15,459 nucleotides of DNA from Longivirga aurantiaca. GTDB lineage: Bacteria > Actinomycetota > Actinomycetes > S36-B12 > CAIYMF01. Position 1 is the first letter of the stretch. Every line of letters begins with the position of its first letter. The notes below the pieces were generated by a model. That model was not told the origin of the DNA. It made no database searches and saw only the letters and a program-made list of their open reading frames with translations. Below, one piece after another: positions 1 through 15,459 of this stretch. Position numbers and translations under genes: made by a program. Where the stretch lies: positions 1-15,459 of the forward strand of contig NZ_JBHSTI010000022.1 in the NCBI RefSeq assembly GCF_042660085.1. The letters run 5' to 3'.

Positions 1-1
1 C

Positions 2-1452: not shown

Positions 1453-2225
1453 CCGTGCGCTACGAGGTCGACGGCGGCGTCGCGACGATCACGCTCGCGA
1501 GCCCCGAGACCAAGAACGTCCTGTCGGCGGCCATGCTCGCGGAGCTGCCGCAGCACTTCGCGGCAGCCGCCGAGGACGACGCCGTGCGCGTGATCGTGCT
1601 GACCGGCGAGGGCAACACGTTCTGCGCGGGTGCCGACCTGTCGGGCGCTTCGACCGCGGACGCCGACAGCTTCGCGGCGTCAGGCCCCGGCGCGCTGGTG
1701 CGCGTGCTCGAGGCGATGCTCGACCACCCGAAGCCGATCGTGGCTCGCGTGCAGGGGCACGTCGCCGGCGGCGGCAACGGCCTGGTGGCGGCGTCCGACC
1801 TGTCGGTGGCTGTGGAGACGGCGAAGTTCGCGTTCAGCGAGGTGCGCGTGGGGGTCGCGCCGGCCGTGATCTCGGTGGTGTGCCTCGCGCGGATGAACCC
1901 CAACGACGCGCGTGAGCTGCTGCTGACCGGTGAGCGCGTGAGCGCCGAGCGGGTGAAGGCTGCCGGGCTCGTGACGGCGGTGGCCGAGGAGCCGTCGTTC
2001 GACGCCGTCGTCCGGGCCTACGTCGACGCGCTGCTGCTCGGCGGCCCGCAGGCGCTAGCGCGGACCAAGGAGCTGCTGCGCCGCGTGCCGGGGATGGACC
2101 GCGATGCGGCGTTCGCTTTCACGGCCCAGCTGTCGGCGTCGCTCTTCTCCAGCGACGAGGCGCGCGAGGGCATGACCGCGTTCCTGCAGCGCCGCCCCGC
2201 ACCCTGGGCCCCGACCACCGACTGA
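1449..2225 (+). CDS. enoyl-CoA hydratase/isomerase (crotonase) family protein
   Basis: ATG 1449 overlaps the ACAD stop (ATGA 1449-1452), giving 258 aa. Crotonase motifs are VIVLTGEGNTFCAGADL, GHVAGGGNGLVAASDLSVA and FSEVRVGVAP. The same-frame codons 768-1448 in the ORF track are an out-of-frame read of the ACAD gene and are excluded. Confidence 0.9.
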   Translation: MTVRYEVDGGVATITLASPETKNVLSAAMLAELPQHFAAAAEDDAVRVIVLTGEGNTFCAGADLSGASTADADSFAASGPGALVRVLEAMLDHPKPIVARVQGHVAGGGNGLVAASDLSVAVETAKFAFSEVRVGVAPAVISVVCLARMNPNDARELLLTGERVSAERVKAAGLVTAVAEEPSFDAVVRAYVDALLLGGPQALARTKELLRRVPGMDRDAAFAFTAQLSASLFSSDEAREGMTAFLQRRPAPWAPTTD

Positions 2226-2529
2226 CACCCGCGCCAGTCCGTCCCGCGCCGGGGGTGATGGGAAGGATCGCCCGGCTCTCGTGGATGAAGTCCCCTACCG
2301 GGCGAGGGCTTCGCCCATGGCCGGCGGGGGCCCAAGCCCTGCTCCAGAACGTCGGGGGCCGATGACGCGCGCGCGGCATGGGGGGTGTAACGCACCGCGC
2401 TGCTTCCAGCGTTGCAGGCCCGGAAGGGCTCGGCGGCCCCGTACGCCGTTGCATCCGGCGCCTGCTGAGGGTGTGCTATCCCAGGCACACGCGGTGAAAG
2501 CGGTGCCGGTCGTGTCACACGATCGTGTC

Positions 2530-2543
2530 CGTAAACGCTTGCA
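2530..2543. promoter_or_regulatory. candidate LacI/GalR-type operator (CGTAAACGCTTGCA)
   Basis: Matches 12 of 14 positions of the generic LacI-family/cre pattern TGWAANCGNTNWCA, with the central CG. It lies 64 nt upstream of the LacI-family start and overlaps the proposed -35. The half-sites are imperfect (GTAAAC/GCAAGC). Confidence 0.3.
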
Positions 2544-2568
2544 CTTGCGTGTCATGGATCCCTACCCT
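2539..2568 (+). promoter_or_regulatory. candidate housekeeping-sigma promoter of the LacI-family gene (-35 TTGCAC, 18-nt spacer, -10 TACCCT)
   Basis: TTGCAC at 2539-2544 and TACCCT (TAnnnT) at 2563-2568, about 39 nt upstream of ATG 2607, with RBS GGGAAGGAGG at 2592-2601. This is a pattern match only. Confidence 0.25.
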
Positions 2569-2606
2569 GAGGCCGCTGCACGGGCCACGACGGGAAGGAG
2601 GCCGAC

Positions 2607-3611
2607 ATGGCGATGACGATCCGCGACATCGCGCGGGAGGCCGGGGTCTCCACCGCGACGGTGTCCCGAGCGCTGCGCGGCCTGCCCAACGTCGACCCGG
2701 TCACCCGCGAGAAGGTGCGCCAGGTCGCCGAGCGCCTCGACTACGTGGTCTCGCCGGCGGCGTCCCGCCTCGCGAGCGGCCGCGCCGGCAGCATCGCCGT
2801 GATCACGCCGTACATCGCGCGCTGGTACTTCGCCCGGGTGCTCTCGGGCATCGAGGGCGTGCTCCAGGCGTCCGACCTCGACCTGCTGCTCTCGAGCATC
2901 GGCGACCCGGGCGAGACCGGGCACGTGCCCCCGCACCGCAAGCTGCGGCGCCGCGTCGACGGCTTCCTCGTCATCTCGCTCCCGACCGAGACCGAGGGCG
3001 TCAGCGAGATCTTCGACCTCGACCAGCCCGTCGTGCTCATCGACACCGACCACGACGGCTGCTCGTCGATCGGCATCGACGACGTCGCCGGCGCGCGGAT
3101 GGCCGTGCAGCACCTCATCAACCTCGGGCACGAGCGCATCGCGCTCATCTCGGGCCGACCGCGCCCGACCCCGTTCCGCCCGGAGGACAACCGCTTCATC
3201 GGCTACCGCGACACCATGGTCGAGGCCGGCCTGCGCATCGATCCCGACCTCGAGGCCTGCGGACATTTCACGATCGAGGGCGGGGAGCGCGCGATGACCT
3301 CGCTGCTCGCACGGGCCAACCCGCCGACCGCCGTCTTCGCGATGTCGGACGAGATGGCGTTCGGTGCGCTGCGCTCGCTGCGGGCGCACGGACTCGAGCC
3401 AGGACGCGACGTCAGCGTGGTGGGCTTCGACGGCCACGAGATGAGCGAGCACCTCGACCTCACCACCGTCGTGCAGCCGGTCGAGGAGATCGGTGCGCGC
3501 GCGGCGCGGCTGCTGCTCGCGCGCCTCGACGACCCGCAGGCTCCGCCCAAGCACGACGTGCTGCCGCTCGACATGGTCGTGCGCGGCTCCACCGCCCTGC
3601 GCCGTCGCTGA
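2607..3611 (+). CDS. LacI family transcriptional regulator
   Basis: 334 aa with a strong RBS 5 nt upstream. The N-terminal HTH MTIRDIAREAGVSTATVSRALRG is typical of LacI/GalR. It is followed by a periplasmic-binding-protein-like effector domain (SIAVITPY, VDGFLVISL, PTAVFAMSDEMAFGALRSL, VSVVGFDG). Confidence 0.93.
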   Translation: MAMTIRDIAREAGVSTATVSRALRGLPNVDPVTREKVRQVAERLDYVVSPAASRLASGRAGSIAVITPYIARWYFARVLSGIEGVLQASDLDLLLSSIGDPGETGHVPPHRKLRRRVDGFLVISLPTETEGVSEIFDLDQPVVLIDTDHDGCSSIGIDDVAGARMAVQHLINLGHERIALISGRPRPTPFRPEDNRFIGYRDTMVEAGLRIDPDLEACGHFTIEGGERAMTSLLARANPPTAVFAMSDEMAFGALRSLRAHGLEPGRDVSVVGFDGHEMSEHLDLTTVVQPVEEIGARAARLLLARLDDPQAPPKHDVLPLDMVVRGSTALRRR

Positions 3612-3693
3612 CCGTCCGACCTCGCAGGCGCTCACCCCCCGAGATCCCCGGAGGGCGCGGCAACCATCCGAGCCGCCCACCGCGTGAGACTGG

Positions 3694-3991
3694 GTGAGGG
3701 CGGCGTACGGCGGCCCACGACGGATCGGGGTCGACGTGCAGGACAGGCCGGACTTCGCGGAGTTCGTCTCCGTGCGGTCGCCCGCGCCGCTGCGGACGGC
3801 GTACCTCCTCACCGGCGACTGGCGGTACGTCGCCTGCTCCGGCACCCGGCTCGTGCGGCCCGAGCGGCGAGCCGATCAGCGGCACCTGGACGGCGTACGA
3901 CGACCGCAGCACCGGCCTGCTCGATTGCGCAGCCCCGGGCACCGCGTCCGCCCTGGCCGCCAAGGCCGCGGAGCTCTGCCCGAAGGGCTAG
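3694..3991 (+). pseudogene. probable relic of an ECF (actinobacterial SigE-family) sigma factor gene, frameshifted/internally deleted
   Basis: Frame-1 translation from GTG 3694 reads ..DRPDFAEFVSVRSPAPLRTAYLLTGDW. This is the pattern at the N-terminus (start of region 2) of SigE-family ECF sigma factors, but the expected following AEDxxQ and regions 2-4 are missing. GC3 is high in frame 1 only to about 3890. It then becomes high in frame 2, which ends at TAG 3989-3991 (..GEPISGTWTAYDDRSTGLLDCAAPGTASALAAKAAELCPKG*). About 100 codons in total is too short for a sigma factor. Confidence 0.3.
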
Positions 3992-4004
3992 CCCCACCGT
4001 CAGG

Positions 4005-4066
4005 CTGACGAACCCGGCGTTTCCGCACCTGGGAAGCGACGGGTTCATCAGTCTCAGCGATGGGGG
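4005..4066 (+). repeat. palindrome-plus-tail repeat, copy A
   Basis: Arms are 4005-4024 and 4032-4051 (17 Watson-Crick + 1 G:T + 2 mismatches of 20), with a 7-nt spacer at 4025-4031. The tail TCTCAGCGATGGGGG is at 4052-4066. It aligns base-for-base with copies B and C. Confidence 0.75.
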
Positions 4067-4110
4067 TGTCCTGAGGTGCGGGGTGCGCCGGGAGCCGCGA
4101 CGATCGCCGG

Positions 4111-5580
4111 GTGAGGATGCTGTTCGCCGACCAGCTCGGCCCGCACTTCACCACCGATCTCGATCCCGACGAGCAGGTGCTGCTCGTCGAATCGCGCCAG
4201 GCCTTCGCCCGGCGCCGCGTCCACCGGCAGAAGGCGCACCTGCTGCTGAGCGCCCTGCGGCACCGTGCCGCTGAGCTGGGTGATCGCGCCGTCCACGTGC
4301 AGGCGTCGTCGTACGGCGAAGCCCTGCGTCAGGCCGGCATCGACCCGCGCACGGTGACCGTGGTCGACCCGACCTCGTACGCCGCCCGCCGCTGGGCTCG
4401 CGACCAGGGCATGACGGTGCTTCCCGCACGCGGATTCACGATGGGGGAGAACGAATTCCAGGCGTGGCTGGGCACCCGCCGACCGGTCCTCGAGGACTTC
4501 TACCGCCACCAGCGCAGGCGCCTCGACCTGCTCGTGCAGCCCGACGGCGAGCCCGAGACCGGGCGCTGGAACTTCGACGCCGACAACCGCCTGCCCCCGC
4601 CGAAGGGGCAGCGCACCCTCGGTCTCCCGCATCCGTGGTCGCCGACGGAGGACGCGATCGACGCCGTCGTGCGCCGCGACCTCGATGCGTGGGACGGCGT
4701 CACGCTCGTCGGCGTCGACGCGCCGCGCACGTTCGCCGCCACGCGCGCCGAGGCCCTTGCCGCCCTCGACGACTTCGTGCAGCACCGCCTCGCGCAGTTC
4801 GGCCCGTACGAGGACGCCGTGCTGCGCGACGACTGGGCGATGGCCCACAGCCTGCTCTCGGTGCCGATGAACCTCGGCCTGCTCGACCCGCTCGAGGTGG
4901 TCGACGCCGCCGTCGCGGCGTACCGCGCAGGCGACGTGCCGCTGCAGAGCGCAGAGGCGGTCGCGCGGCAGGTGGTCGGCTGGCGCGAGTGGGCGTGGCA
5001 GCTCTACTGGGCGCTCGGCGAGGAGTACGCCGACGGCAACGCGCTCGGCGCGAACGCGCCGATCCCGTCGTGGTTCGCCGACCTCGACGCGGACGACGTA
5101 CGGGCTTCGTGCCTGCGGTCGGCGCTGGCCGACGTACGGGACCGCGGCTGGAGCCACCACATCGTGCGGCTCATGGTGCTGGGCAACTGGGCCCTGCAGC
5201 GCGGCTACGACCCGCGCGCGACCGCGGCGTGGTTCCGCGACTCGTTCGTGGACGGCTACGACTGGGTGATGGTGACCAACGTCGTCGGCATGGCCCTCTA
5301 CGCCGACGGCGGCCGCATGGCCACCAAGCCGTACGCCGCTGGCGGCGCCTACCTCAACCGCATGACGGACCACTGCAAGGGCTGCGCCTACTCGCCGTCC
5401 ACGCGCGTCGGCGCGACGGCCTGCCCGTTCACCGCCGGCTACTGGGCGTTCCTCGACCGCAACGCCGATGCGCTGCGCGGCAACCACCGCCTCGCCCAGC
5501 CCTACGCCGGCCTCGCCCGCCTGGCCGACCGCGGCGCCCTGGTCGCCCAGGAGGCCGCCCGCGGCACCGCCGCCCCCTGA
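4111..5580 (+). CDS. cryptochrome/photolyase family protein, Fe-S cluster type (FeS-BCP; PhrB/CryB-like, putative (6-4) photolyase)
   Basis: 489-aa ORF from GTG 4111; ATG 4117 gives MLFADQLGPHF, the usual N-terminus of this family. Family-like blocks are HSLLSVPMNLGLL, WREWAWQLYW, GWSHHIVRLMVLGN and YDWVMVTNVVGM. Four Cys are positioned for a 4Fe-4S cluster (VRASCLRS; DHCKGCAYSP; GATACPF). Confidence 0.88.
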   Translation: MRMLFADQLGPHFTTDLDPDEQVLLVESRQAFARRRVHRQKAHLLLSALRHRAAELGDRAVHVQASSYGEALRQAGIDPRTVTVVDPTSYAARRWARDQGMTVLPARGFTMGENEFQAWLGTRRPVLEDFYRHQRRRLDLLVQPDGEPETGRWNFDADNRLPPPKGQRTLGLPHPWSPTEDAIDAVVRRDLDAWDGVTLVGVDAPRTFAATRAEALAALDDFVQHRLAQFGPYEDAVLRDDWAMAHSLLSVPMNLGLLDPLEVVDAAVAAYRAGDVPLQSAEAVARQVVGWREWAWQLYWALGEEYADGNALGANAPIPSWFADLDADDVRASCLRSALADVRDRGWSHHIVRLMVLGNWALQRGYDPRATAAWFRDSFVDGYDWVMVTNVVGMALYADGGRMATKPYAAGGAYLNRMTDHCKGCAYSPSTRVGATACPFTAGYWAFLDRNADALRGNHRLAQPYAGLARLADRGALVAQEAARGTAAP

Positions 5581-5607
5581 CGGGCGACGAGTCGTCCACG
5601 ATCACGA

Positions 5608-5680
5608 GTACGGGTCAATCAGTGCAGTTCGACTGCCGTGATCGACCCCAGGGGTCGCCCGTGGGCAGGGGTGGGGGCGG
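5608..5680 (+). repeat. degenerate 3'-half copy (D) of the palindrome-plus-tail repeat
   Basis: ACGGGTCAATCAGTGC (5610-5625) is identical at 13 of 16 positions to the 3' arm/tail junction of copy C (ACGGATTGATCAGTGC). A G-rich block GGGGTGGGGGCGG (5668-5680) resembles the tail of copy C (GGTGGGGGTGGGCGG) but is separated by about 40 extra nt. No matching 5' arm is present. Confidence 0.4.
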
Positions 5681-5833
5681 CGCGGGACGTCCGGTGTTCG
5701 GGCTCGGACGGGTAACAGCACGGGCTCGGAGATGCCAGGATGCGCGGTAGAACACGCGCCGGCGCGTGGTCACGGCGGCGATCCCGCACGGGCCAGGCTC
5801 CTGCGCCCGACGGCAACCGCAGGAGGTCCACCC

Positions 5834-6916
5834 ATGACCGCAGACGGAGGCCCCGAGCTCGTCCAGCTCCTCACCCCCGAGGGCGAGCGGGTCCACCATC
5901 CCGACTACGACGTCGATCTGACGCCGGACGAGCTGAGGGCGCTCTACCGCGACCTCGTCCTCGTACGCCGGGTCGATGCCGAGGCCACCGCGCTCCAGCG
6001 CCAGGGCGAGCTCGGCCTCTGGGCCCAGCTGCTCGGCCAGGAGGCCGCGCAGGTCGGATCGGGGCGCGCCCTGCGCACCGACGACTTCGCGTTCCCGACG
6101 TACCGCGAGCACGGCGTCGCGTGGACCCGCGACGTCGACCCCCTGCAGCTGCTCGGGCTCTTCCGCGGCGTCACCAACGGCGGGTGGGACCCGCACGACC
6201 ACAACTTCGCGCTCTACACGATCGTCATCGGCGACCAGTGCCTGCACGCGGTCGGCTACGCGATGGGCATCCAGCGCGACGGCACCGACCGCGCCGTGAT
6301 CACGTACTTCGGCGACGGCGCGACGAGCCAGGGCGACGTCAACGAGTCGTTCGTGTTCGCCAGCGTCTACAACGCGCCGGTCGTGTTCTTCTGCCAGAAC
6401 AACCAGTGGGCGATCTCCGAGCCGCTCGAGCGCCAGACCCGCATCCCCCTCTACAAGCGCGCGGCCGGCTTCGGCTTCCCCGGCGTACGGGTCGACGGAA
6501 ACGACGTCCTCGCGGTGCTCGCGGTCACCCGCGCGGCCCTGCAGAACGCGCGAGAGGGCAACGGCCCCACGCTGATCGAGGCGTTCACCTACCGCATGGG
6601 CGCGCACACCACGTCCGACGACCCGACGCGCTACCGCGTCGCGGCCGACCTCGAGGCCTGGAAGCTCAAGGACCCGATCGAGCGCGTGAAGGTCTACCTC
6701 GCCCGCAACGGCCTCGCTGACCACGGTTTCTTCGACGAGGTCGAGGCCGAGGCCGAGGTGCTCGCCGTCCGGCTGCGCGAGGGCTGCCGCTCGCTGCCCA
6801 ACCCGGCGCCCGAGTCGCTCTTCGACCACGTGTACGCCGAGGCGCACCCGCTGATCGAGAGCGAGCGCGAGGAGTTCGTGCGCTACCACGCGTCGTTCGC
6901 GGGAGGGGAGCACTGA
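5834..6916 (+). CDS. 2-oxoacid dehydrogenase E1 component subunit alpha (TPP-dependent; branched-chain keto acid dehydrogenase-like)
   Basis: RBS AGGAGG at 5821-5826 and ATG 5834, giving 360 aa. TPP-binding motif GDGATSQGDVNESFVFASVYNAPVVFFCQNNQWAIS, plus the FTYRMGAHTTSDDP region. The codons upstream in the track ORF (5732-5833) are non-coding leader. Confidence 0.92.
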   Translation: MTADGGPELVQLLTPEGERVHHPDYDVDLTPDELRALYRDLVLVRRVDAEATALQRQGELGLWAQLLGQEAAQVGSGRALRTDDFAFPTYREHGVAWTRDVDPLQLLGLFRGVTNGGWDPHDHNFALYTIVIGDQCLHAVGYAMGIQRDGTDRAVITYFGDGATSQGDVNESFVFASVYNAPVVFFCQNNQWAISEPLERQTRIPLYKRAAGFGFPGVRVDGNDVLAVLAVTRAALQNAREGNGPTLIEAFTYRMGAHTTSDDPTRYRVAADLEAWKLKDPIERVKVYLARNGLADHGFFDEVEAEAEVLAVRLREGCRSLPNPAPESLFDHVYAEAHPLIESEREEFVRYHASFAGGEH

Positions 6917-7899
6917 TGGCCGTCACGACGATGGCGAAGGCCATCAACGCGGGCCTGCGCAAGGCGCTCGAGAACGACGAGAAGGTCCTGCTCATGGGGG
7001 AGGACATCGGCAAGCTCGGCGGCGTCTTCCGCGTGACCGACGGTCTGCAGAAGGACTTCGGCGAGGCGCGCGTGATCGACTCCCCGCTCGCCGAGAGCGG
7101 CATCATGGGCACCGCGGTCGGCCTCGCGATGGCCGGCTACCGGCCTGTGGTCGAGATCCAGTTCGACGGGTTCGTCTACCCGGCGTTCGACCAGATCGTG
7201 TCGCAGATCGCCAAGCACCGCGCCCGGTCCGCCGGCCGCACTCCGATGCCGATCACGATCCGCCTGCCGTTCGGCGGCGGCATCGGCGCGGTCGAGCACC
7301 ACAGCGAGTCGCCCGAGGCGTACTTCGCGCACACCGCCGGTCTGCGCGTGATCTCGCCGTCCAACCCGGTCGACGCGTTCGTCATGGTGCAGCAGGCGAT
7401 CGCGAGCGACGACCCGGTCGTCTTCCTCGAGCCCAAGCGCCGCTACTGGGACAAGGCCGACGTCGACGACACGGTCGACATCAGCCGCGCGCAGTCGCCG
7501 TTCACCGCGCGCGTCGTGCGGCCGGGCACCACCGCCACGCTCGCCTGCTACGGCCCGATGGTGCGCACCTGCTTGGAGGCCGCGCTCGCCGCCGAGTCCG
7601 ACGGCCTCGACCTCGAGGTGATCGACCTGCGCTCGGTGTCGCCGCTCGACATCCCGACGGTGGCCGCGTCCGTGCGCAAGACCGGGCGGCTCGTCGTCGT
7701 GCACGAGGCGTCGGTCTTCCTCGGCGTCGGCGCTGAGCTCGCGGCACGCGTCACCGAGGAGTGCTTCCACTCGCTCGAGGCTCCCGTGCTGCGAGTGGGC
7801 GGCTACCACACGCCGTATCCGCCGTCCCGGCTCGAGGAGGAGTACCTCCCCGACCTCGACCGCGTGCTCGACGCCGTCGACCGTTCGTTGGCGTACTGA
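6916..7899 (+). CDS. 2-oxoacid dehydrogenase E1 component subunit beta
   Basis: ATG 6916 overlaps the E1alpha TGA by 1 nt, giving 327 aa. It has a typical E1beta N-terminus (INAGLRKALENDEKVLLMGEDIGKLGGVFRVTDGLQKDFGEARVIDSPLAESGI). Confidence 0.93.
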   Translation: MAVTTMAKAINAGLRKALENDEKVLLMGEDIGKLGGVFRVTDGLQKDFGEARVIDSPLAESGIMGTAVGLAMAGYRPVVEIQFDGFVYPAFDQIVSQIAKHRARSAGRTPMPITIRLPFGGGIGAVEHHSESPEAYFAHTAGLRVISPSNPVDAFVMVQQAIASDDPVVFLEPKRRYWDKADVDDTVDISRAQSPFTARVVRPGTTATLACYGPMVRTCLEAALAAESDGLDLEVIDLRSVSPLDIPTVAASVRKTGRLVVVHEASVFLGVGAELAARVTEECFHSLEAPVLRVGGYHTPYPPSRLEEEYLPDLDRVLDAVDRSLAY

Positions 7900-7910
7900 G
7901 GAGGGTGGAC

Positions 7911-9329
7911 ATGAGCGACATCAAGACGTTCCTGCTGCCCGACGTGGGCGAGGGCCTCACCGAGGCCGAGATCCTGACCTGGCACGTGAAGCCGGGCGAC
8001 ACGGTGGTGGTCAACCAGACCATCGTCGAGATCGAGACGGCGAAGGCCGCGGTCGAGCTGCCCTGCCCATACGCGGGCACGGTGACCGAGGTCTACGTCT
8101 CCGAGGGCGACACGGTCGAGGTCGGCACACCGATCATCGCGATCGCCACGGGCGCAACAGGTTCCGCGCCTGAGCCCGCCCTGTCACCCGCGAGCGACAT
8201 CGTGCCCGCGGTCGCCGTCGAGCCCGACGAGGGCAAGCGCGAGGCCGTGCTCGTCGGGTACGGCGTCAAGCAGACCGGCACGCCGCAGCGACGCCAGCGC
8301 GTCCCGCATGTGACGCCGCACGGCGCGCCCGAGGTCGAGGTCGGCCCGCCCGGCGAGGCCGCGCGCCCGGTGCGCTACGGCAGCCTCGAGGTCGGTCGGC
8401 ACACCGAGGAGGTGCTGTCGCGCCGCAGCCCGGTGCTCGCCAAGCCGCCGGTGCGCAAGCTCGCCAAGGATCTCGGCGTCGACCTCTCCACGGTCGACCC
8501 CACCGGCGACGGCGGCACGCTCACGCGTGCGGACGTCGAGCGCGCGGCCAAGCTCACCGGTCTCGCGCCGTCCACTCGTCCGGCGTACGCCGGTGCCTCG
8601 CGCACGGTCGCGCCCGAGCGCACCGGCCCCCGCGAGGAGCGCACGCCGGTCAAGGGCGTGCTGAAGATGATGAGCGAGGCGATGGTGGCGAGCGCCTTCA
8701 CCGCACCGCACGTCACCGAGTGGGTCGAGGTCGACGTCACGCGCACGGTCGAGCTCGTGGAGAGCCTGAGGAAGCGTCCCGAGCTCGAGGGCGTGAAGGT
8801 CAGCGCACTGCTGCTGGTCGCCGCGGGGCTCATCCGCGCGGCGCGCGCGTTCCCCGGCGTCAACTCCACGTGGGACGGCGAGGCCGGCGAGGTCGTCACC
8901 AAGCACTACGTCAACCTCGGCATCGCCGCGGCGACGCCCCGCGGCCTCATCGTGCCCAACATCAAGGACGCCGACCGGCTCGACCTCGTCGGGCTCGCGC
9001 GGGCGCTGCACGACCTCGTCGACGTTGCGAAGTCCGGGAAGACGCCGCCCGCCGACATGGCGGGTGGCACGATCACGATCACCAACGTGGGCGTCTTCGG
9101 CGTCGACGGCGGGACGCCGATCATCAATCCCGGTGAGTCCGCGATCCTGGCGATGGGCCGAGTGGCCCTGAAGCCGTGGGTCGTCGACGGCGAGGTGCGG
9201 GCTCGGCACGTCATGCAGCTCACGCTGTCGTTCGACCACCGTCACGTCGACGGCGCGCTGGGCTCGCAGGTGCTCGCGTCCGTCGCCCGATTCCTGGAGG
9301 ACCCCGCCCTTGACCTCGTCCTCGGCTGA
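7911..9329 (+). CDS. dihydrolipoamide acyltransferase (E2) of a 2-oxoacid dehydrogenase complex
   Basis: RBS GAGGAGGG just upstream and ATG 7911, giving 472 aa. It has a lipoyl domain with lipoyl-lysine context EIETAKAAVELP, a peripheral-subunit-binding domain (VLAKPPVRKLAKDLGVDLSTV), and a catalytic domain with DHRHVDG. Confidence 0.93.
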   Translation: MSDIKTFLLPDVGEGLTEAEILTWHVKPGDTVVVNQTIVEIETAKAAVELPCPYAGTVTEVYVSEGDTVEVGTPIIAIATGATGSAPEPALSPASDIVPAVAVEPDEGKREAVLVGYGVKQTGTPQRRQRVPHVTPHGAPEVEVGPPGEAARPVRYGSLEVGRHTEEVLSRRSPVLAKPPVRKLAKDLGVDLSTVDPTGDGGTLTRADVERAAKLTGLAPSTRPAYAGASRTVAPERTGPREERTPVKGVLKMMSEAMVASAFTAPHVTEWVEVDVTRTVELVESLRKRPELEGVKVSALLLVAAGLIRAARAFPGVNSTWDGEAGEVVTKHYVNLGIAAATPRGLIVPNIKDADRLDLVGLARALHDLVDVAKSGKTPPADMAGGTITITNVGVFGVDGGTPIINPGESAILAMGRVALKPWVVDGEVRARHVMQLTLSFDHRHVDGALGSQVLASVARFLEDPALDLVLG

Positions 9330-10512
9330 CTCCCACCCGCACCCTTCGCGGCACCACGTGCCGGGCGACCCGACGACGGTCGCCCGGCTTCGTGCGACCC
9401 TCGCCGACTGGCTGACGCCGGACCACATCGGCTGGTCGGTGCGGCATGTGCGCGAGCTGCTGCCGACCGAGCGCATCCGATCGGCCGCGCAGCCGCGCGA
9501 GCTGCCGGAGCGGTTCGAGCCCACGCTGCTCGACCTCACGATCGAGGCGCACGACGGTCCGGTCGCGCTGCACGACCTGCTGCACGACGGCGAGCGCGAT
9601 GCCCTCGTCGTGCTGCACCAGGGCGAGCTCGTGCTCGAGTGGCTCGCGCCCGGTGTGCGCACCGACGAGCAGCACCTCGTCTTCTCCATCACCAAGTCGG
9701 TGACCGGTCTGCTCGCCGGCGCCCTGTCGTCGCGCGGCCTGCTCGACCTCGACGCGCTCGTGGTCGACGTCGTCCCCGAGGTCGCGGGCAGCGCGTTCGC
9801 CACCGCCACGGTCCGACAGCTGATGGACATGGAGGCGTCGTTCGCCTTCGTCGAGGACTACACGCCGGGGCCGGACCTCACGGCGTACCGGCACGCGGCG
9901 GGCTGGTACCCGGCCCCAGCGGGTGCCCCGGCCCTGCGCAACTTCCTCGCCACGCGTGAGCCGGACGGCGAGCACGGCGAGCGCTTCCGCTACCTCTCGC
10001 CGGCGATCGACCTGCTCGGCTGGGTGTGCGCTGCCTCGGCGGGCACCACGTGGGCCGAGGCGGTCGAGCGCTACCTCTGGCAGCCGGCAGGCACCGAGCT
10101 GGGCGCGCACGTCACGCTCGACCGCGAGGGCACCCCGCGCGCGGCAGGCGGGATGAGCGCGCTGCCCCGCGACGTCGCACGGCTCGGCCAGATCGTGGCC
10201 GAGCGCGGTGCGGGCCTCGTGTCGGAGGAGTTCGTCGACGACCTGCTCCACGCCGGGCACCGCGAGCAGTGGGCGCGCGGCGACTTCGCGTCGATGTGGG
10301 CCGACGGCGCCTACCGCTCGTGCTGGTACACGCCGAACATCGACCCCGACGTCGCGCTCGGCATGGGGATCCACGGTCAGATGCTGTACGTCGACGTCGC
10401 GCGCGAGGTGGTCGTCGTCGTCCTGTCGTCGTGGTCCGAGCCCGACGACGAGCAGTGGCACCTCGACAACCACGCCATCTGCCGCACGATCGCCCACACC
10501 GTCGGTGGCTGA
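9310..10512 (+). CDS. serine hydrolase, beta-lactamase fold (NylB/EstB-like esterase-amidase family)
   Basis: 400-aa ORF with the SxxK active-site motif in HLVFSITKSVTGLLAG. The region before it (DALVVLHQGELVLEWLAPGVRTDEQHLVFS) resembles, from memory, the 6-aminohexanoate-dimer hydrolase family. The start is uncertain: TTG 9310 (20-nt overlap with E2) or in-frame GTG 9358. Confidence 0.8.
   Translation: MTSSSADSHPHPSRHHVPGDPTTVARLRATLADWLTPDHIGWSVRHVRELLPTERIRSAAQPRELPERFEPTLLDLTIEAHDGPVALHDLLHDGERDALVVLHQGELVLEWLAPGVRTDEQHLVFSITKSVTGLLAGALSSRGLLDLDALVVDVVPEVAGSAFATATVRQLMDMEASFAFVEDYTPGPDLTAYRHAAGWYPAPAGAPALRNFLATREPDGEHGERFRYLSPAIDLLGWVCAASAGTTWAEAVERYLWQPAGTELGAHVTLDREGTPRAAGGMSALPRDVARLGQIVAERGAGLVSEEFVDDLLHAGHREQWARGDFASMWADGAYRSCWYTPNIDPDVALGMGIHGQMLYVDVAREVVVVVLSSWSEPDDEQWHLDNHAICRTIAHTVGG
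9361..9387 (+). terminator. GC-rich hairpin 32 nt after the E2 stop (possible attenuating/terminator-like structure, no U-tract)
   Basis: CCGGGCGACC (9361-9370) / GGTCGCCCGG (9378-9387) form a perfect 10-bp stem with a 7-nt loop. It lies inside the 5' end of the serine-hydrolase ORF. A stem of this size is roughly expected once by chance in a window this GC-rich, so only its position is suggestive. Confidence 0.25.
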
Positions 10513-10518
10513 GCGACT

Positions 10519-10580
10519 CGAGTCACTGCCCGAATGGTCGCTGAAGCGGTTCGTTCAGCGACCACATGGGCAGTGACTCG
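10519..10580. terminator. 62-nt near-perfect hairpin filling a convergent intergenic gap (putative bidirectional terminator or REP-like element)
   Basis: The outer stem is 10519-10531 CGAGTCACTGCCC / 10568-10580 GGGCAGTGACTCG (13/13). The inner stem is 10535-10545 TGGTCGCTGAA / 10554-10564 TTCAGCGACCA (11/11), with an 8-nt loop GCGGTTCG and a small internal loop. It is flanked by TGA 10510-10512 (+ gene) and the stop at 10589-10591 (- gene). Confidence 0.6.
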
Positions 10581-10588
10581 GAGCCCCG

Positions 10589-11434
10589 CTACGGCGTGAT
10601 GGCGAGGGCGGCGGGCACCCGCGCGGCGAGGTCGGCGTCGCCGGTCAGCTCGACCCTGGCCAGGACGGCGGGGTCGGTGACGTCGAGCCGCCCGGTGGTC
10701 AGTCGGGCGTACGTCTCCCAGTCGGTGCTGACGCCGATGGTCGGCTCGTCGACCGGCGCGATGTCGGCGCCCTTGCCGGCGGGCGTGACCTCGGCGTACC
10801 GCTCGAACTCGATCGGTCCGGTGACGGTGAGCCGGATGGTGGTGCCGGGTGGTGCCTCGACGTTCTTGGCGAGCATGAAGCCGAGCGTGCGCACCATCTG
10901 CACGGCGGCCACCTGCGCGCCGGCCGTCCTCAGGTTCGCCGGCAGCTGCACGGCGCGGCGGATGTCCTGCTCGTGCGTCCAGGTGTCGAACGTGCGCATC
11001 CGCACCATGCGGTCGAGCGGCACCGGCGTGCCGAAGACGCCCATCACCTCGGTCTCGAGGGTGAGCGGGTCGAGCGCCATGATCTGCCCGAGCCGCACGT
11101 CGGCGAGACCGGCGAGCTCGTCGCAGCACTCCTGCTGCGGCTGACCGCGGCGTACGTCGACACCGGTCTCGGTCAGCCGCCCGAAGTCGTTCGCGATGTG
11201 CGGGAAGCGCGACCAGTCGATCTCGTGCTCCGGCTGCGGCCGACCCGCCATGAACGACTCGATCCACGCGAGGTGGCGGACGACGTCGCCCGCGCTCCAG
11301 CCGGGGCACTCCGTCGGTGCCTCCCACTGCTCGGGGGAGAGCCGGCGGCCCAGCTCGGCGACGGTGTGCAGCGCGTCGTTCCACGCGGCGAGCAGCTCGC
11401 GCACGCCGTACGACTCCGCGGGAAGGGTGCTCAT
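10589..11434 (-). CDS. maleylpyruvate isomerase family mycothiol-dependent enzyme (DinB/MDMPI-like)
   Basis: ATG is the complement of 11432-11434, giving 281 aa. The N-terminal DinB/MDMPI pattern is ..SPEQWEAPTECPGWSAGDVVRHLAWIE.., and a C-terminal domain is present. The further 237 upstream codons in the track ORF (to 12145) are antisense to the synthetase gene and are not credible. Confidence 0.85.
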   Translation of the reverse strand: MSTLPAESYGVRELLAAWNDALHTVAELGRRLSPEQWEAPTECPGWSAGDVVRHLAWIESFMAGRPQPEHEIDWSRFPHIANDFGRLTETGVDVRRGQPQQECCDELAGLADVRLGQIMALDPLTLETEVMGVFGTPVPLDRMVRMRTFDTWTHEQDIRRAVQLPANLRTAGAQVAAVQMVRTLGFMLAKNVEAPPGTTIRLTVTGPIEFERYAEVTPAGKGADIAPVDEPTIGVSTDWETYARLTTGRLDVTDPAVLARVELTGDADLAARVPAALAITP

Positions 11435-11525
11435 GCGCCCCAGGCTAGACGCGGCCCCGCCCGTTCCCGCAGGTAATCCGGGCGTCGCGGCGGCCCAGGT
11501 CTCGGCGGGACCCGGCCGGGGCAGG

Positions 11526-12953
11526 ATGGGCGTCGTGACCCTCACGGCGCACTGGGTGCGCGGCTGGCTCGAGCGGCCGGACGACGTCGTCCTCGTCGAC
11601 GGCGACGACGGCTGGGCCCTGACGGGCGCGGCGATGGAGGCCGCCACGCACGAGCTCGCCGGCCGGCTCGCGGCAGCGGGCGTCGGCGCGGGGGACCGGG
11701 TCCTGCTGTCACGGTCGCCCTCGGTCGAGACGGTGCTGGCGTACGTCGCGGTCCTGCGGCTCGGTGCCGTCGTCGTCCCCGCCAGCACGGCGTACACCGC
11801 GCGCGAGCTCGCCCACATCGTCGGCGACGTGCGGCCGGTGCTCGCGCTGGTCGACGACGTCTCGCGCATCGACGGCGTGCGCGCGTATGGCGGCCGCCTC
11901 GACGACCTGCCACCGGGCGTCGCGGTCAGGCTCGACGCCGCGGTCAGCGACGACCTCGCGATGGTGGCGTACACCAGCGGCACCACCGGAGCGCCCAAGG
12001 GCGCGATGCTCAGCCACGGCAACCTGCTGGCGGGCGCACAGGCGCTGGTGCGGACCTGGGGCTGGACGCCGTCCGACCGCCTGCTGCACACGCTGCCGCT
12101 GTTCCACATGCACGGCCTCGGCGCGGGGCTGAACGGCTCGTTCACTGCGGGCGCCTCTGTGGTGCTCTCGCGCTTCGAGCCCGGGCTCGTGGTCGAGACA
12201 GCTGCGTCGTACGGCGCGACGCTCTACTTCGGCGTCCCGACCATGTACGCGAAGCTCGCCGAGTCCGGCTGTCTCGCCGGGCTGCGCGGGCTGCGGCTGC
12301 TCGTGTCGGGGTCGGCGCCGCTCGACCCGGTGCTGTTCGGCCGCATCGCCGAGGAGGCCGGGCAGGCGCCCGTCGAGCGCTACGGCATGACCGAGACGGT
12401 CATGCTCACGTCGAACGCCCTCGACGACCGCGTGCCCGGATGCGTGGGGTGCGCGCTGCCCGGAGTCCAGGTGCGGCTCGGGGACGGCGGAGCCGTGGAG
12501 GTCAAGGGCCCCAACGTCTTCCGCGGGTACTGGGAGCGGCCGGAGGCCTCGGCGGCGGCGTTCACCGACGACGGCTTCTTCCGCACCGGCGACATCGGCA
12601 CGCTCGACGACCAGGGCCGCCTTCGCCTCGTCGGCCGTGCGAGCGAGCTCATCATCACCGGCGGCTACAACGTCTACCCGCGCGAGGTCGAGGACGTGCT
12701 GCGCGAGCACCCCTCCGTCGCCGATGTGGCTGTGGTGGGCCTTCCCGACGCGACCTGGGGCGAGACGGTCGCAGCCTTCGTGGTGCCGACGGAGGCCGGA
12801 CTGTTCGACGCCGAGGTGCTTGCGGCACACGCGTCGGCGGGGCTCGCGGCGTACAAGACCCCGCGCACCTGGCTCGCGGTGGACGAGCTGCCGCGCAACG
12901 CGATGGGCAAGGTGCAGCGCGACGTCCTGCGCACCTTCCACCTCTCACGCTGA
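11526..12953 (+). CDS. AMP-dependent acyl-CoA synthetase/ligase (MatB-like; substrate unknown)
   Basis: Adenylate-forming motifs are YTSGTTGAPKGAM, FRTGDIG, GGYNVYPREVE and the C-terminal PRNAMGKVQR. It is 475 aa from ATG 11526. GTG 11535 is better spaced from AGGA 11523-11526 and is an alternative start. Confidence 0.9.
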   Translation: MGVVTLTAHWVRGWLERPDDVVLVDGDDGWALTGAAMEAATHELAGRLAAAGVGAGDRVLLSRSPSVETVLAYVAVLRLGAVVVPASTAYTARELAHIVGDVRPVLALVDDVSRIDGVRAYGGRLDDLPPGVAVRLDAAVSDDLAMVAYTSGTTGAPKGAMLSHGNLLAGAQALVRTWGWTPSDRLLHTLPLFHMHGLGAGLNGSFTAGASVVLSRFEPGLVVETAASYGATLYFGVPTMYAKLAESGCLAGLRGLRLLVSGSAPLDPVLFGRIAEEAGQAPVERYGMTETVMLTSNALDDRVPGCVGCALPGVQVRLGDGGAVEVKGPNVFRGYWERPEASAAAFTDDGFFRTGDIGTLDDQGRLRLVGRASELIITGGYNVYPREVEDVLREHPSVADVAVVGLPDATWGETVAAFVVPTEAGLFDAEVLAAHASAGLAAYKTPRTWLAVDELPRNAMGKVQRDVLRTFHLSR

Positions 12954-13015
12954 CACTGATCATTCCGTCGTTTCCCGGGCCAGGAAGCGACGGATCGATC
13001 AGTGCGCGCGAGGGG
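12954..13015 (+). repeat. palindrome-plus-tail repeat, copy B (best-preserved)
   Basis: Arms are 12954-12975 and 12983-13004 (19 Watson-Crick + 1 G:T + 2 mismatches of 22), with a 7-nt spacer at 12976-12982. The tail ends in GCGCGCGAGGGG at 13015. It starts 1 nt after the synthetase stop codon. Confidence 0.8.
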
Positions 13016-13031
13016 CTGCGAGGATGCGCGC

Positions 13032-13484
13032 GTGAGCATCTTCGAGGGCGACGACGAGACCGAGGTCGACCTCGGCCGGGTGTCCGAGCTGGCGTCGGCG
13101 GTGCCGCACGACCTGCGCCTCGACCCGCTGCGTGGGGCGATCGGCGCGCTGCTCGACGAGGCCGGCACCCGGGTCGGCACGATCGTCGCCGACGTCGAGG
13201 TGTGGTGGCGCAAGGAGGGGCTGCTCCGCAGACGCGACGTCGACCCGCGCGAGAGCGTGATCGTCGAGGTGTCGTTCGACCCCGTCGCCCTCGACGACGA
13301 CGGCTACCCGACGGTGCTGCCGTGGGTGGAGGCCTCCTTCGAGGCGGACGACGTCGAGGTGGCCGACCTGCTGTCCGGGCGGCTCGCCTACCCCGACCGC
13401 GACCTCGCGATCACGTGGTTCGGCGCGGGCGACGCCGCCCGCGAGCGCCTCGCGTGGCATACGCGGTTCGACGACCCTGCGTGA
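13032..13484 (+). CDS. hypothetical protein, acidic, no recognised domain
   Basis: GTG 13032 is preceded by GAGGA (13020-13024) at good spacing, and GC3 is near-saturated throughout, so it is very likely translated. It is 150 aa and rich in D/E (VSIFEGDDETEVDLG..., FDPVALDDDGYP, EASFEADDVEVADLL). The alternative GTG 13002 lies inside the repeat arm. I do not recognise any family. Confidence 0.7.
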   Translation: MSIFEGDDETEVDLGRVSELASAVPHDLRLDPLRGAIGALLDEAGTRVGTIVADVEVWWRKEGLLRRRDVDPRESVIVEVSFDPVALDDDGYPTVLPWVEASFEADDVEVADLLSGRLAYPDRDLAITWFGAGDAARERLAWHTRFDDPA

Positions 13485-13527
13485 CCCGCCGTACCGAACC
13501 CGGCGCGGCGCCGACCCCTTCCGTGAG

Positions 13528-13590
13528 CCGGATCAACCCGTCGCTTCCTGCCCCGGGATACGACGGATTGATCAGTGCGAGCGGTGGGGG
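13528..13590 (+). repeat. palindrome-plus-tail repeat, copy C
   Basis: Arms are 13529-13548 and 13556-13575 (16 Watson-Crick + 4 mismatches of 20), with a 7-nt spacer at 13549-13555. The tail TGCGAGCGGTGGGGG is at 13576-13590 and runs into a G-tract block. Confidence 0.75.
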
Positions 13591-13614
13591 TGGGCGGGCT
13601 GGGATGATGCGGGC

Positions 13615-14388
13615 ATGACGCGTGTGGCCCTGGTGCAGCTCGACTCCTCCGACACCGAGACGCCTGCCGACCGCCTCGACCGGGCGGCCGGGATCGTGGA
13701 GCGGCTCGTCGACGTCGACCTCGCAGTGCTGCCCGAGCTCTGGCACGTCGGCGCCTTCGACCTCGAGCTCGCGAAGGCCGAGGCGCAGCCGATCGACGGC
13801 CCGGTGGTCACGCGGATGCGGGCTGCAGCACGCACGGCTGGCATCACGCTGCACATGGGCTCGTTCGCCGAGGCGTCCGCCGGCAACCGCTACAACACCT
13901 CGGTCGTGATCGACGCCGACGGCGAGATCCTCGCGACGTACCGCAAGCAGCACCTCTTCGGCTGGGAGGACGGCGAGCCCTCGGTGATGACCGCGGGCGA
14001 CTCGCTCACCGTGCTGCCGACCGCGCTGGGCGCCACCGGCCTTGCCACCTGCTACGACCTGCGCTTCCCCGAGCTGTTCCGCCGGCTGGTCGACTCCGGC
14101 GCCGAGACGTTCCTGCTGTCGTCGGGGTGGCCGATCACCCGCATCGAGCACTGGCAGGTGCTCGCGCGAGCGCGCGCGATCGAGGACCAGGCCTGGGTCG
14201 TCGCGTGCAACGGCGCGGGGAACCACGTCGGCGTCCAGCTCGGCGGCCACTCGGTCGTGGTCGACCCGCGCGGCACCGTCGTCGCCGAGGCCGGCGTCGA
14301 GGAGGAGATCCTGTACGCCGAGATCGATCCGGCTGCGGCACGTGACTGGCGGATGGCGTTCCCCGTGCTGGCCGATCGCCGCCTGTAG
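13615..14388 (+). CDS. carbon-nitrogen hydrolase (nitrilase superfamily) family protein
   Basis: 257 aa. The catalytic-triad contexts are visible: LPELW (Glu), YRKQHLF (Lys) and ATCYDLRFPE (Cys). Confidence 0.92.
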   Translation: MTRVALVQLDSSDTETPADRLDRAAGIVERLVDVDLAVLPELWHVGAFDLELAKAEAQPIDGPVVTRMRAAARTAGITLHMGSFAEASAGNRYNTSVVIDADGEILATYRKQHLFGWEDGEPSVMTAGDSLTVLPTALGATGLATCYDLRFPELFRRLVDSGAETFLLSSGWPITRIEHWQVLARARAIEDQAWVVACNGAGNHVGVQLGGHSVVVDPRGTVVAEAGVEEEILYAEIDPAAARDWRMAFPVLADRRL

Positions 14389-14435
14389 CCCGTACGGCGG
14401 CTCCCGCTGCCGCACCCAGCAGGTGGGATGTGCCG

Positions 14436-14828
14436 ATGGGACTCCTCGACCGGCTGAAGCGCTCGAGGAACGACGAGGTCGACCCCGACGAGCGCTCGCC
14501 TCAGCTCGGCATCAAGTACAAGGACCTCATGGTCGTCGAGCAGATGGTGAAGGCCGGCGCCGACCTCTCAGAGCCGCGGCACTGGATCTACTACCTCTAT
14601 CTGCCCACCGAGGCGCTGGCCGAGGAGGCCGCGGTCGAGGCTCGGGCTGCGGGGTGGGGGACGGTGGTCCGTCCGAGTGCCGACGAGGCCTCGACCCAGT
14701 GGTGCGTGGTGGCCGAGCAGCACGACGTCGTCCTCACCCCTGCGCTGCTCACCGACGCCGACAACCTCTTCCAGGGCATCGCCGACCGGCTCGACGGCGA
14801 CTACGACGGCTGGGAGGCGTCGGTCTAG
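14436..14828 (+). CDS. RraB-like protein (regulator of ribonuclease activity B family)
   Basis: The core EPRHWIYYLYLP and the C-terminal DGDYDGWEASV resemble the RraB family (E. coli RraB has ..YDGWGT.. near its domain end). ATG 14436 is preferred because GGTGGGA at 14422-14428 is well spaced. The track start GTG 14430 is an alternative. Confidence 0.75.
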   Translation: MGLLDRLKRSRNDEVDPDERSPQLGIKYKDLMVVEQMVKAGADLSEPRHWIYYLYLPTEALAEEAAVEARAAGWGTVVRPSADEASTQWCVVAEQHDVVLTPALLTDADNLFQGIADRLDGDYDGWEASV

Positions 14829-15391
14829 CGGCCGAAGTCGGTCACCTTCACCGGTATGCCGCTGCGGTCGTACGTCGTCCACTCGCGCACCTGGCGTCCG
14901 CGGTCGAAGCTGCCGCTGCGCATGAGCGACCCGTCCGCCCGCCACCACTGCCAGTCGCCGTGCAGCTCGCCGTTCTTCATCGCGCCCTTGGCCTTGAGGC
15001 CGCCGTCGGGGTAGAAGTCGCGCACCTTCCCCTTCGCATCCGGCACCATCTGCAGCTCGGTGAGCCTGGCCGCGACCAGCTTCTTCACGAGCGGCTTCTT
15101 CAGGGTCTCGCCCGCCGGCACCTTGATCGCACCCTTGGACGTCTCGTACGCCGACAGCGCGTCGCCGAGCGTCGCGACCACCGAGCCGCTGTGCGGCAGG
15201 TACGACCAGTGCTTCGCCGAGCCGGAGAGACCGGCCACGGCCGTGCCGTCGACGGTCCACGCGGGCGCGCCGTACGCCATCGCCTCCTCGGCCCGCGGCA
15301 GCAGACCGCCGAGGAGCGCCCGCATCGCGGTGAGGCTGCTGCGCTGCGGCTCGGGCTGCTGCGCGATGTACGCGTCCATCCCGCTCGTCAT
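14825..15391 (-). CDS. DUF1801 (YdhG-like) domain protein fused to MORN-variant repeats
   Basis: 188 aa. The N-terminal part (AYIAQQPEPQRSSLTAMRALL..AYGAPAWTVDG) looks like YdhG/DUF1801. The C-terminal part (GELHGDWQWWRADGSLMRSGSFDRGRQVREWTTYDRSG) looks like MORN-variant (YwqK-type) repeats. Its 3' end overlaps the RraB-like gene by 4 nt in convergent orientation. Confidence 0.8.
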   Translation of the reverse strand: MTSGMDAYIAQQPEPQRSSLTAMRALLGGLLPRAEEAMAYGAPAWTVDGTAVAGLSGSAKHWSYLPHSGSVVATLGDALSAYETSKGAIKVPAGETLKKPLVKKLVAARLTELQMVPDAKGKVRDFYPDGGLKAKGAMKNGELHGDWQWWRADGSLMRSGSFDRGRQVREWTTYDRSGIPVKVTDFGR

Positions 15392-15459
15392 GGCGCGACG
15401 CTACTGCGCAGGCACTGACGGGGAACAGTGCTGCCGACGCTGCGGTTGGATGTGTCCGT

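Follow-up and report, generated by a model that had tools for sequence, protein, structure and literature searches.

A dispersed palindromic repeat family at gene ends in Longivirga aurantiaca and its relatives: an undescribed case of the REP/TRIT kind

A 15,459-nt stretch of DNA from Longivirga aurantiaca (contig NZ_JBHSTI010000022.1, positions 1-15,459; hereafter the window) carries nearly identical palindromes at several gene borders. This raises the question of what kind of element they represent and which role would keep them there. In the first-pass annotation, made from the sequence alone, they were described as a dispersed repeat family with three full copies that align base for base, a 3′-half copy, and one common orientation. 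The three full copies (A, B, and C) were found as described, centred at 4028, 12979, and 13552. Their alignment was confirmed by checking the sequences at 4005-4066, 12956-13015, and 13529-13590, a repeat finder placed all three in one family (D3), and a degenerate arm pattern gave six matches in the window, with 0.04 expected by chance.

The unit was found to be an imperfect palindrome of 75-77 nt with the layout CCCC-nn-CGCTSRSA / CTGATCAATCCGTCGYTTCC / N7 / GGAARCGACGGATTGATCAG / TSYSAGCG-nn-GGGG. The core consists of two almost invariant 20-nt arms (CTGATCAATCCGTCGYTTCC and its complement) around a free 7-nt loop, and is extended by two weaker outer arms of ~14 nt each, resulting in a stem of 34 potential pairs. 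The outer part on the 3′ side had been taken for an asymmetric tail that follows one arm only. This part, TSYSAGCG-nn-GGGG, pairs with the C-rich 5′ flank CCCC-nn-CGCTSRSA, so that the palindrome is longer than first described.

Copy A covers 3992-4066 and is made up of an outer arm (3992-4004), the left core arm (4005-4024), the loop (4025-4031), the right core arm (4032-4051), and the second outer arm (4052-4066). It folds at -54.2 kcal/mol (z = -6.0) and scores 63.7 bits (E = 3e-14). Copy B covers 12939-13015, with core arms at 12956-12975 and 12983-13002 and the loop at 12976-12982 (-52.0 kcal/mol, z = -6.7; 70.8 bits). Copy C covers 13515-13590, with core arms at 13529-13548 and 13556-13575 and the loop at 13549-13555 (-59.6 kcal/mol, z = -6.0; 64.0 bits). 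None of the three was assigned to a strand. On the + strand the window copies fold at -52 to -60 kcal/mol with z about -6, and the - strand is almost as stable; over the whole family, stability is ~ -52 kcal/mol on either strand. The 7-nt loop length is fixed in all 55 full copies identified below, including three that were added independently by a gap-tolerant covariance model. In the window copies the loop is also free in sequence, as had been noted for the spacer.

The supposed 3′-half copy at 5608-5680 was rejected as a member of the family. It was missed at E ≤ 1 by the covariance model built from 52 copies, and it shares CCACGATCACGAG...CGGG...GCAGTTSRACTGC with a second repeat family that is present in loci L010, L019, L031, L042, and L047. 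Since this segment belongs to another family, the element occupies three gaps of the window and not four, as had been counted.

Species-representative genomes, a collection that does not include the genome of the window itself, were scanned with a loop-plus-arm pattern, resulting in 53 loci. Eight of these were single matches in unrelated taxa, which is at chance level. The other 45 came from five metagenome-assembled genomes (MAGs), two labelled uncultured Actinomycetes (CAWJMG01 and CAVTWM01) and three labelled Candidatus Nanopelagicales (JBBQAY01, JBBRAQ01, and JBFWNE01). A covariance model was subsequently built from 52 copies and run on the 365 kb around the copies. It added only three full copies to those found with the strict pattern, indicating that copies are either near the consensus or absent. 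Taken together, the pattern scan and the model, a search of relatives that had been proposed at the outset, gave 55 full copies in six related genomes, and the repeats are thus a dispersed family as originally claimed. A metagenome scan gave ~14 additional, more diverged copies; samples with the element include Ga0073899, Ga0073904, Ga0075163, and Ga0209476. Proteins of the window, looked up by exact sequence, were not on record.

The best assembled genome, CAWJMG01, also the closest to that of the window, carries ~24-25 copies on two large contigs (4.18 Mb). The copies are spread along both contigs, and chromosomal clustering, which was looked for in this genome, was not found. One of its loci (L031), 85-95% identical to window positions 3846-7163, harbours the copy A orthologue (L031:4898); the orthologue of copy B is present in metagenome contig L068, centred at 1479. 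Neither a plasmid collection nor viral contigs gave a match to the element. A lineage-specific family, occurring in a small clade of uncultured high-GC Actinomycetes, is well supported.

Searches with the Rfam 15 covariance models, also proposed earlier, left the element unmatched both in the window (E ≤ 1) and in four related loci (E ≤ 0.1), and the second repeat family was likewise without a match in these sequences. Matches to mir-2830 at 10511-10589 were discarded, as they scored 30 bits against a family threshold of 70 bits and reflect hairpin shape only. The first-pass annotation, which had found nothing known to which the repeat could be assigned, was correct as far as Rfam is concerned, but had overlooked a closely analogous motif published from Mycobacterium, TRIT (PMC3152330). 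That the element is an undescribed dispersed palindromic repeat family, and a new case of the REP/TRIT kind, is well supported. The family is new; gene-end palindromes of the REP/TRIT kind were already known.

Gene positions were determined with a simple model based on GC content by codon position, by which the Pfam-supported genes of the window were recovered. The 55 copies lie between 33 same-strand, 16 convergent, and 6 divergent gene pairs, compared with 63% same-strand, 18% convergent, and 18% divergent among all gaps in the same loci. The distance to the stop codon gave a sharper positional signal than the context of the gene pair. Sixty-six element sides face the 3′ end of a gene, and at 55 of them the stop codon adjoins the hairpin base or falls inside it. 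The last base of the stop lies 37-41 nt from the centre, or 0-3 nt from the hairpin base, at 45 sides and 46 nt from the centre at two; at eight sides it lies 26 nt from the centre, where the GCTGACA outer arm includes a TGA. Of the 55 copies, 45 abut a stop codon on one side or both, and start codons on the other side of the element are 36 to >1,000 nt away. Placement of this kind fits a sequence-conserved, REP-like gene-end hairpin, one of the readings put forward initially. The six copies in divergent promoter regions have no upstream gene end and count against it.

Each of the window copies had been described as starting shortly after the stop codon of a + strand gene. Copy A directly follows a TAG (3989-3991, + strand), which abuts its CCCC and ends a truncated gene remnant (about 3846-3991); the intact orthologue of this remnant (L031:3670-4860) ends in a TGA that abuts its own element copy. 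Copy B contains a stop rather than following one. Its outer arms overlap the last codons of an AMP-binding (acyl-CoA synthetase-like) gene (11196/11526-12953), and the TGA of this gene (12951-12953, + strand) lies inside the GCTGACA outer arm, 26 nt from the centre. Copy C is the exception in the window, as it begins 30 nt after a TGA (13482-13484). Between copies B and C lies an open reading frame of 150 aa without a Pfam match (13032-13484, + strand), which is kept in L068. Its GAGGA ribosome-binding site starts a few nucleotides past the end of copy B, and 16 nt separate that end from the start codon. Over the three window copies, downstream cistrons start 16-45 nt past the element.

Elsewhere in the family, one copy lies between same-strand aspartokinase and aspartate-semialdehyde dehydrogenase genes, and at this position the element is therefore not an efficient terminator. 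Convergent gaps without the element usually contain a single stop-to-stop hairpin in these genomes, in which TGA pairs with TCA (for example, window 10513-10587). The element thus fills a general slot for hairpins at gene ends. No functional theme was found among the 30 flanking genes that were scanned, which are housekeeping genes.

Sequence conservation was determined for 16 orthologous copies, representing 14 locus pairs between two MAGs that are ~85% identical and two other pairs. Identity was 93.3% in the core arms, 74.1% in the outer arms, and 59.8% in the loop, compared with 92.0%, 93.2%, and 76.3% at flanking codon positions 1, 2, and 3, respectively. The core arms thus evolve as slowly as codon positions 1 and 2 while the loop drifts, and a sequence-reading partner is worth seeking for this reason. 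Intergenic gaps with the element had an identity of 0.85 (n = 9) and those without it 0.625 (n = 13). Non-orthologous copies also showed a core identity of 93.3%: the small number of core positions that vary have reached saturation, and all others are fixed. Resident copies are therefore under purifying selection for a specific sequence.

Conservation of pairing as such was not detected. Over 52 copies, 83.4% of the cells were paired, slightly below the 85.0% obtained in shuffles, and among 15 diverged copies six double changes kept a pair (6.6 expected by chance) next to 46 one-sided changes. The double change between G4010:C4046 in copy A and C:G in the other two, which had been presented as compensatory, is real and is the sole GC case (alignment columns 25/61), but a compensatory signal is absent from the family as a whole. 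At the Y/R position (columns 35/51) the two arms vary independently, with a Watson-Crick pair in 20 of the 52 copies and none in the other 32.

For strand tests, the 33 copies in same-strand context were oriented by the direction of transcription. Sense and antisense folds were equally stable (-51.6 vs -51.5 kcal/mol, p = 0.87), which gives no sign that it is the RNA form that matters. In the core, G-U pairs of the sense RNA (14) were not commoner than A-C mismatches (22), so that the lack of strand bias among mismatches, first noted in three copies, holds on a much larger sample. The outer arms favour sense G-U pairs (40 vs 20), and the end positions of the loop pair less often than by chance (18 vs 27 expected).

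The common orientation that had been ascribed to all copies was not upheld. Candidate markers of an intrinsic polarity, namely end type (columns 16/70), loop ends (40/46), the Y/R pair (35/51), and the C/G skew of the loop, were mutually inconsistent and did not agree with the direction of transcription. Symmetry of the loop was looked for and not found. The two ends of an element tend to differ in type, 37 of 52 being C.C or G.G. The hairpins run into G-runs and are not followed by a U-tract on either strand, and a scan of the window gave 0 terminator-like sites. In short, the data are in line with a symmetric element that some factor recognises by its sequence, and judged from these sequences it could be an RNA hairpin used from either side or a DNA site.

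As the best explanation, to which we give about an even chance, the element is regarded as a REP/TRIT-like family of gene-end hairpins under sequence-specific selection, probably marking or protecting the ends of transcripts. Its most likely role is that of a two-way transcript-end hairpin set against the stop codon and recognised by a putative sequence-reading factor. Transcription from either side would produce a hairpin of ~ -50 kcal/mol directly behind the terminating ribosome. Such a hairpin may define the 3′ end of the upstream cistron or shield it against 3′-to-5′ decay, and may limit read-through between convergent genes. It would not be a strong terminator, because a U-tract is lacking and the next gene on the same strand often starts 15-45 nt later. 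A putative trans-acting partner would read the arm sequence; such a partner is implied by arms that are kept identical and not merely complementary.

The chief rival is a site that acts purely at the level of DNA, to which we assign about half that chance. Here, a protein acting as a dimer or tetramer would bind double-stranded DNA or an extruded cruciform and recognise the two 20-bp halves independently of each other, and the position at gene ends would be secondary. The binder might act as a roadblock, as a nucleoid-associated or topology protein, or as a regulator; REP/BIME elements are bound by gyrase. A strict arm sequence with a fixed 7-bp spacing in all 55 copies is what such a protein would call for. 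The independent variation of the half-sites, with pairing not above that of shuffles, is in line with it, as are the lack of bias towards the transcribed strand and the copies in divergent promoter regions. Yet it is not obvious why a DNA site should require a stop codon within 0-3 nt of the hairpin base, which is where it lies at 53 of the 66 gene-end sides, and under-pairing at the loop ends is a feature of a hairpin rather than of a duplex. Half-sites of 20 bp are also unusually long for a regulator, the 30 scanned flanking genes have no common function, and the copies are spread over the chromosome rather than limited to one domain.

Copies are gained and lost occasionally. Copy C is missing at the orthologous site in L068, where the flanks are 87-91% identical to window 12407-14561 and copy B is kept. 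The copy at L049:3074 is opposite an empty site in L002, and at the position of the copy at L048:6527 the second repeat family is found in L031. In L009, a block consisting of an element and a DJ-1/PfpI gene is present that is absent from L043, its boundaries being stop-codon/element junctions. Such presence and absence among close relatives could point to a non-autonomous mobile element of the MITE or REPIN type that is selfish and has no host function, and for which gene ends are merely tolerated insertion sites. In the diverged copies, decay from a common consensus affects a single arm at a time, and the only copy that looks recent, copy C, is also without an abutting stop codon, both of which would suit this reading. 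We nevertheless consider it improbable, since 14 of the 16 compared copies are orthologous between genomes that are 24% diverged at third codon positions. Their cores remain 93% identical while the loops drift, indicating purifying selection on resident copies, which argues against a selfish origin.

The signs of mobility were also looked for directly. Neither of the two empty sites (L068 and L002) shows a visible target-site duplication, and no direct repeat flanks the filled sites. Presence and absence, as in MITEs, was seen at three sites. As the whole unit is palindromic, any terminal inverted repeats would be indistinguishable from its body. A RAYT homologue was sought in the 365 kb surrounding all detected copies and not found: a tblastn search of this DNA with E. 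coli RayT gave a best E of 0.059, inside an unrelated gene and on the opposite strand. Transposases and recombinases were not found among the window genes and the 30 flanking genes scanned, in agreement with the earlier statement that the window has no transposase or RAYT gene. The copy number, ~25 per genome, is low.

A further reading, in which the element would be an attC-like recombination site at the borders of small gene cassettes, has very little to recommend it and was dropped on end sequences and gene content. Copies do bracket single genes, as in the window (copy B, the 150-aa reading frame, copy C), with three copies in L009, and as pairs or triplets in L010, L037, L039, L043, and L049, and the block that differs between L009 and L043 is bounded exactly at stop-codon/element junctions. 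However, most flanking genes are syntenic housekeeping genes (leuS, ask/asd, fhs, serA), and no array of elements lies beside an integrase. By inspection, the RYYYAAC/GTTRRRY sites by which attC is defined are absent from the ends, which consist of C-runs and G-runs. The single L043 copy, moreover, matches the second L009 copy along its entire left arm and is therefore not the outcome of a crossover inside the element. Least credible of all is a canonical intrinsic (Rho-independent) terminator repeated by chance, which would account for the high stability and GC-richness of the gene-end hairpin but not for the missing U-tract on both strands, the lack of terminator-like sites in the window scan, the close downstream cistrons (16-45 nt), and the U-tract requirement of mycobacterial RNA polymerase in vitro (PMC3993855).

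Among published elements, the nearest analogue is the mycobacterial TRIT (Tuberculosis Rho-independent terminator motif; Gardner et al. 2011, RNIE), known from 147 palindromic, sequence-conserved copies in M. tuberculosis. TRIT is mostly bidirectional, is placed very narrowly at or over the stop codon, and was reported from Mycobacterium only; a dsRNA-binding factor was suggested for it (PMC3152330). Its function as a terminator is doubtful, because the RNA polymerase of mycobacteria depends on a U-tract in vitro (PMC3993855) and predicted TRIT sites coincide only minimally with mapped 3′ ends (bioRxiv 2022.06.01.494293). Both families are actinobacterial, dispersed, palindromic, and conserved in sequence as well as structure. 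Both are mostly usable from either direction, are narrowly placed at the stop codon, and lack a U-tract. They differ in copy number (147 in M. tuberculosis vs ~25 per genome) and, judged from one mycobacterial example, in core sequence.

A palindrome from M. ulcerans (L055:600-660), which was retrieved with a consensus sequence and which we take to be a TRIT copy, served for the comparison of sequences. It is flanked by convergent genes and begins 5 nt past a TAA. All that this presumed TRIT copy has in common with the element is a C-run at the start, followed by a GCGAGC-type box; its core reads AGACGCAAAATCGC where that of the element reads CTGATCAATCCGTCGYTTCC, and the two cores are not alignable. 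A literature search for the presumed TRIT sequence string gave no match.

Canonical terminators are few in Actinobacteria. TRIT, known since 2011, has so far been the only conserved gene-end motif described. The present element adds a second, unrelated sequence family that is palindromic, sequence-conserved, pinned to the stop codon, and devoid of a U-tract. Its occurrence in a distant actinobacterial clade suggests that gene-end palindromes are a general phenomenon and not a mycobacterial quirk. In a broader form, put forward tentatively and rated somewhat below the chance given to the DNA site, the element and TRIT would be two independent cases of one actinobacterial mechanism. The conserved 20-bp stem, as a hairpin of RNA or DNA set exactly at the stop codon, would be recognised by a protein. 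This protein would terminate, insulate, or process transcripts from both sides and so stand in for the U-tract terminators that these bacteria lack. For annotation purposes, the covariance model can be used to separate the elements from the genes whose last codons or stop they contain.

The gene-end hairpin reading also invites comparison with REP/BIME elements, including the GTAG- and CGTC-tagged REP super-families. These are extragenic and mostly located 3′ of genes, in same-strand or convergent gaps, and in some cases contribute a stop codon or overlap one (Di Nocera et al. 2013, PMC3733652); that survey includes no Actinobacteria. Where a REP is found within 15 nt of a stop codon, translation of the upstream gene is affected, and lowered, according to the work of Liang (2015) as cited in PMC12306157, and the roles proposed for REPs include mRNA stabilisation (PMC12306157). 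The location at gene ends, between same-strand or convergent genes, is REP-like. The anatomy differs: a REP measures 20-40 bp and has an unpaired terminal GTAG/CGTC tag, whereas the element has 20-nt core arms with 14-nt outer arms and no terminal tag, as its CGTC is internal and paired. In CGTC-tagged REP families, stems of 8-9 bp, loops of 4-5 nt, and a CCA tail are found, as opposed to 34 potential pairs and a 7-nt loop. REPs usually exceed 100 copies per genome, compared with ~25 here, and their genomes contain a RAYT (Y1 HUH transposase) gene, typically flanked by copies, whereas none was found in the 365 kb around the element copies. The element was therefore not classified as a tagged REP, failing on tag, size, and copy number.

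Pairs of inverted DNA uptake sequences, which double as terminators in Neisseria and Haemophilus, are similar in another respect. Like the element, they combine a short sequence conserved at the DNA level with an inverted arrangement, a free spacer, and a position 3′ of genes. Uptake sequences are 10-12 nt long, occur in hundreds to thousands of copies, and are often single; in contrast, both arms are present in all full copies of the element, as found by searches for full copies. To our knowledge, natural competence is not known for the clade that carries the element.

The same slot and geometry are shared, finally, by the generic tail-less (I-shaped) gene-end hairpins of high-GC Actinobacteria. 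Those hairpins have unique sequences and turn over rapidly (L020:5109 vs L038:3543; L015:5286 vs L046:5109), whereas the primary sequence of the element stays the same from locus to locus and from species to species.

The three copies of the 75-77 nt gene-end palindrome repeat in the window (A, 3992-4066; B, 12939-13015; C, 13515-13590) received the lowest scores from the family covariance model, at 64-71 bits versus 75-95 bits for most copies elsewhere. Copy B was compared with its orthologue on a metagenome contig (L068:1437-1521; L-numbers denote loci from related genomes and metagenomes), and 5 of the 40 core positions differed, which is roughly the level of the flanks. Taken together, the low scores and this core divergence point to a possible relaxation of core constraint in the lineage of the window.

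Outside the core, the outer arms usually differ in type, with GCTC... on one side and GCTG... or CGTG... on the other. In the alignment of family copies (A1, columns 16/70), 37 of the 52 copies showed a C.C or G.G opposition, clearly exceeding the number expected for independently varying arms, and the orientation of this asymmetry showed no correspondence with gene direction. Selection against overly perfect long palindromes is one idea for its cause.

Upstream of copy A, an ECF sigma factor gene has left an N-terminal remnant (FAEFVSVRSPAPLRTAYLLTGD) at positions 3656-3846, with 88% identity to L031:3076-3242, in the MAG CAWJMG01, and to L048:6580-6743. Approximately 1.45 kb of L031 (3242-4709) is absent from the window, leaving the downstream gene truncated, with its TAG immediately adjacent to copy A. 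ECF sigma factor genes directly adjoin family copies, or are bracketed by them, at three separate loci (L009:812-1309, L037:4632-5861 and L048:6580 onward). This association could be due to chance, as many ECF sigma factor genes are probably carried by these genomes.

A DJ-1/PfpI gene is flanked by two elements at L009:2082-2881, while a single element is present in the relative at L043:4691-4775. The additional block extends from immediately behind the upstream TAG up to and including the TGA of the DJ-1/PfpI gene itself. A simple crossover inside the repeat does not account for this difference, since the single L043 copy agrees with the second L009 copy over the entire left arm. At L030:6559-7272 (- strand), an open reading frame apparently runs through a whole element (centre 6609), so that approximately 30 codons at its C-terminal end would come from the repeat. 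Stop codons are absent from two of the element's three reading frames.

The stretch 5608-5680, taken for a 3'-half copy of the family in the first-pass annotation, was instead found to lie within a member (5598-5680) of a second repeat family with the pattern CCACGATCACGAG..CGGG..GCAGTTSRACTGC. Further copies were located at L010:3180-3358, L019:~1150-1220, L031:2911-3077, L042:~6570-6680 and L047:1246-1453, most second-family copies being positioned at gene ends, and TTCCCTTAGGGAA palindromes are also present in some of the other copies. The second family gave no match in Rfam. Separately, a hairpin repeat of ~150 nt, carrying CCCTTAGGG and CCCTTCAAGGGC palindromes similar to those of L031:2911-3077, is exactly enclosed by convergent stop codons in one genome (L046:5109-5267), versus a 10-nt gap in a relative (L015:5286-5297).

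Between two convergent stop codons, at 10510-10512 and 10589-10591, the gap is occupied exactly by a near-perfect 75-nt hairpin (-59 kcal/mol, z -7.3) at 10513-10587, whose sequence is unrelated to that of the palindrome family. Identification of this hairpin as mir-2830 was rejected, the Rfam matches being weak (30 bits versus a threshold of 70) and reflecting hairpin shape alone. The same build, with TGA pairing with TCA, is shared by many convergent gaps in related genomes.
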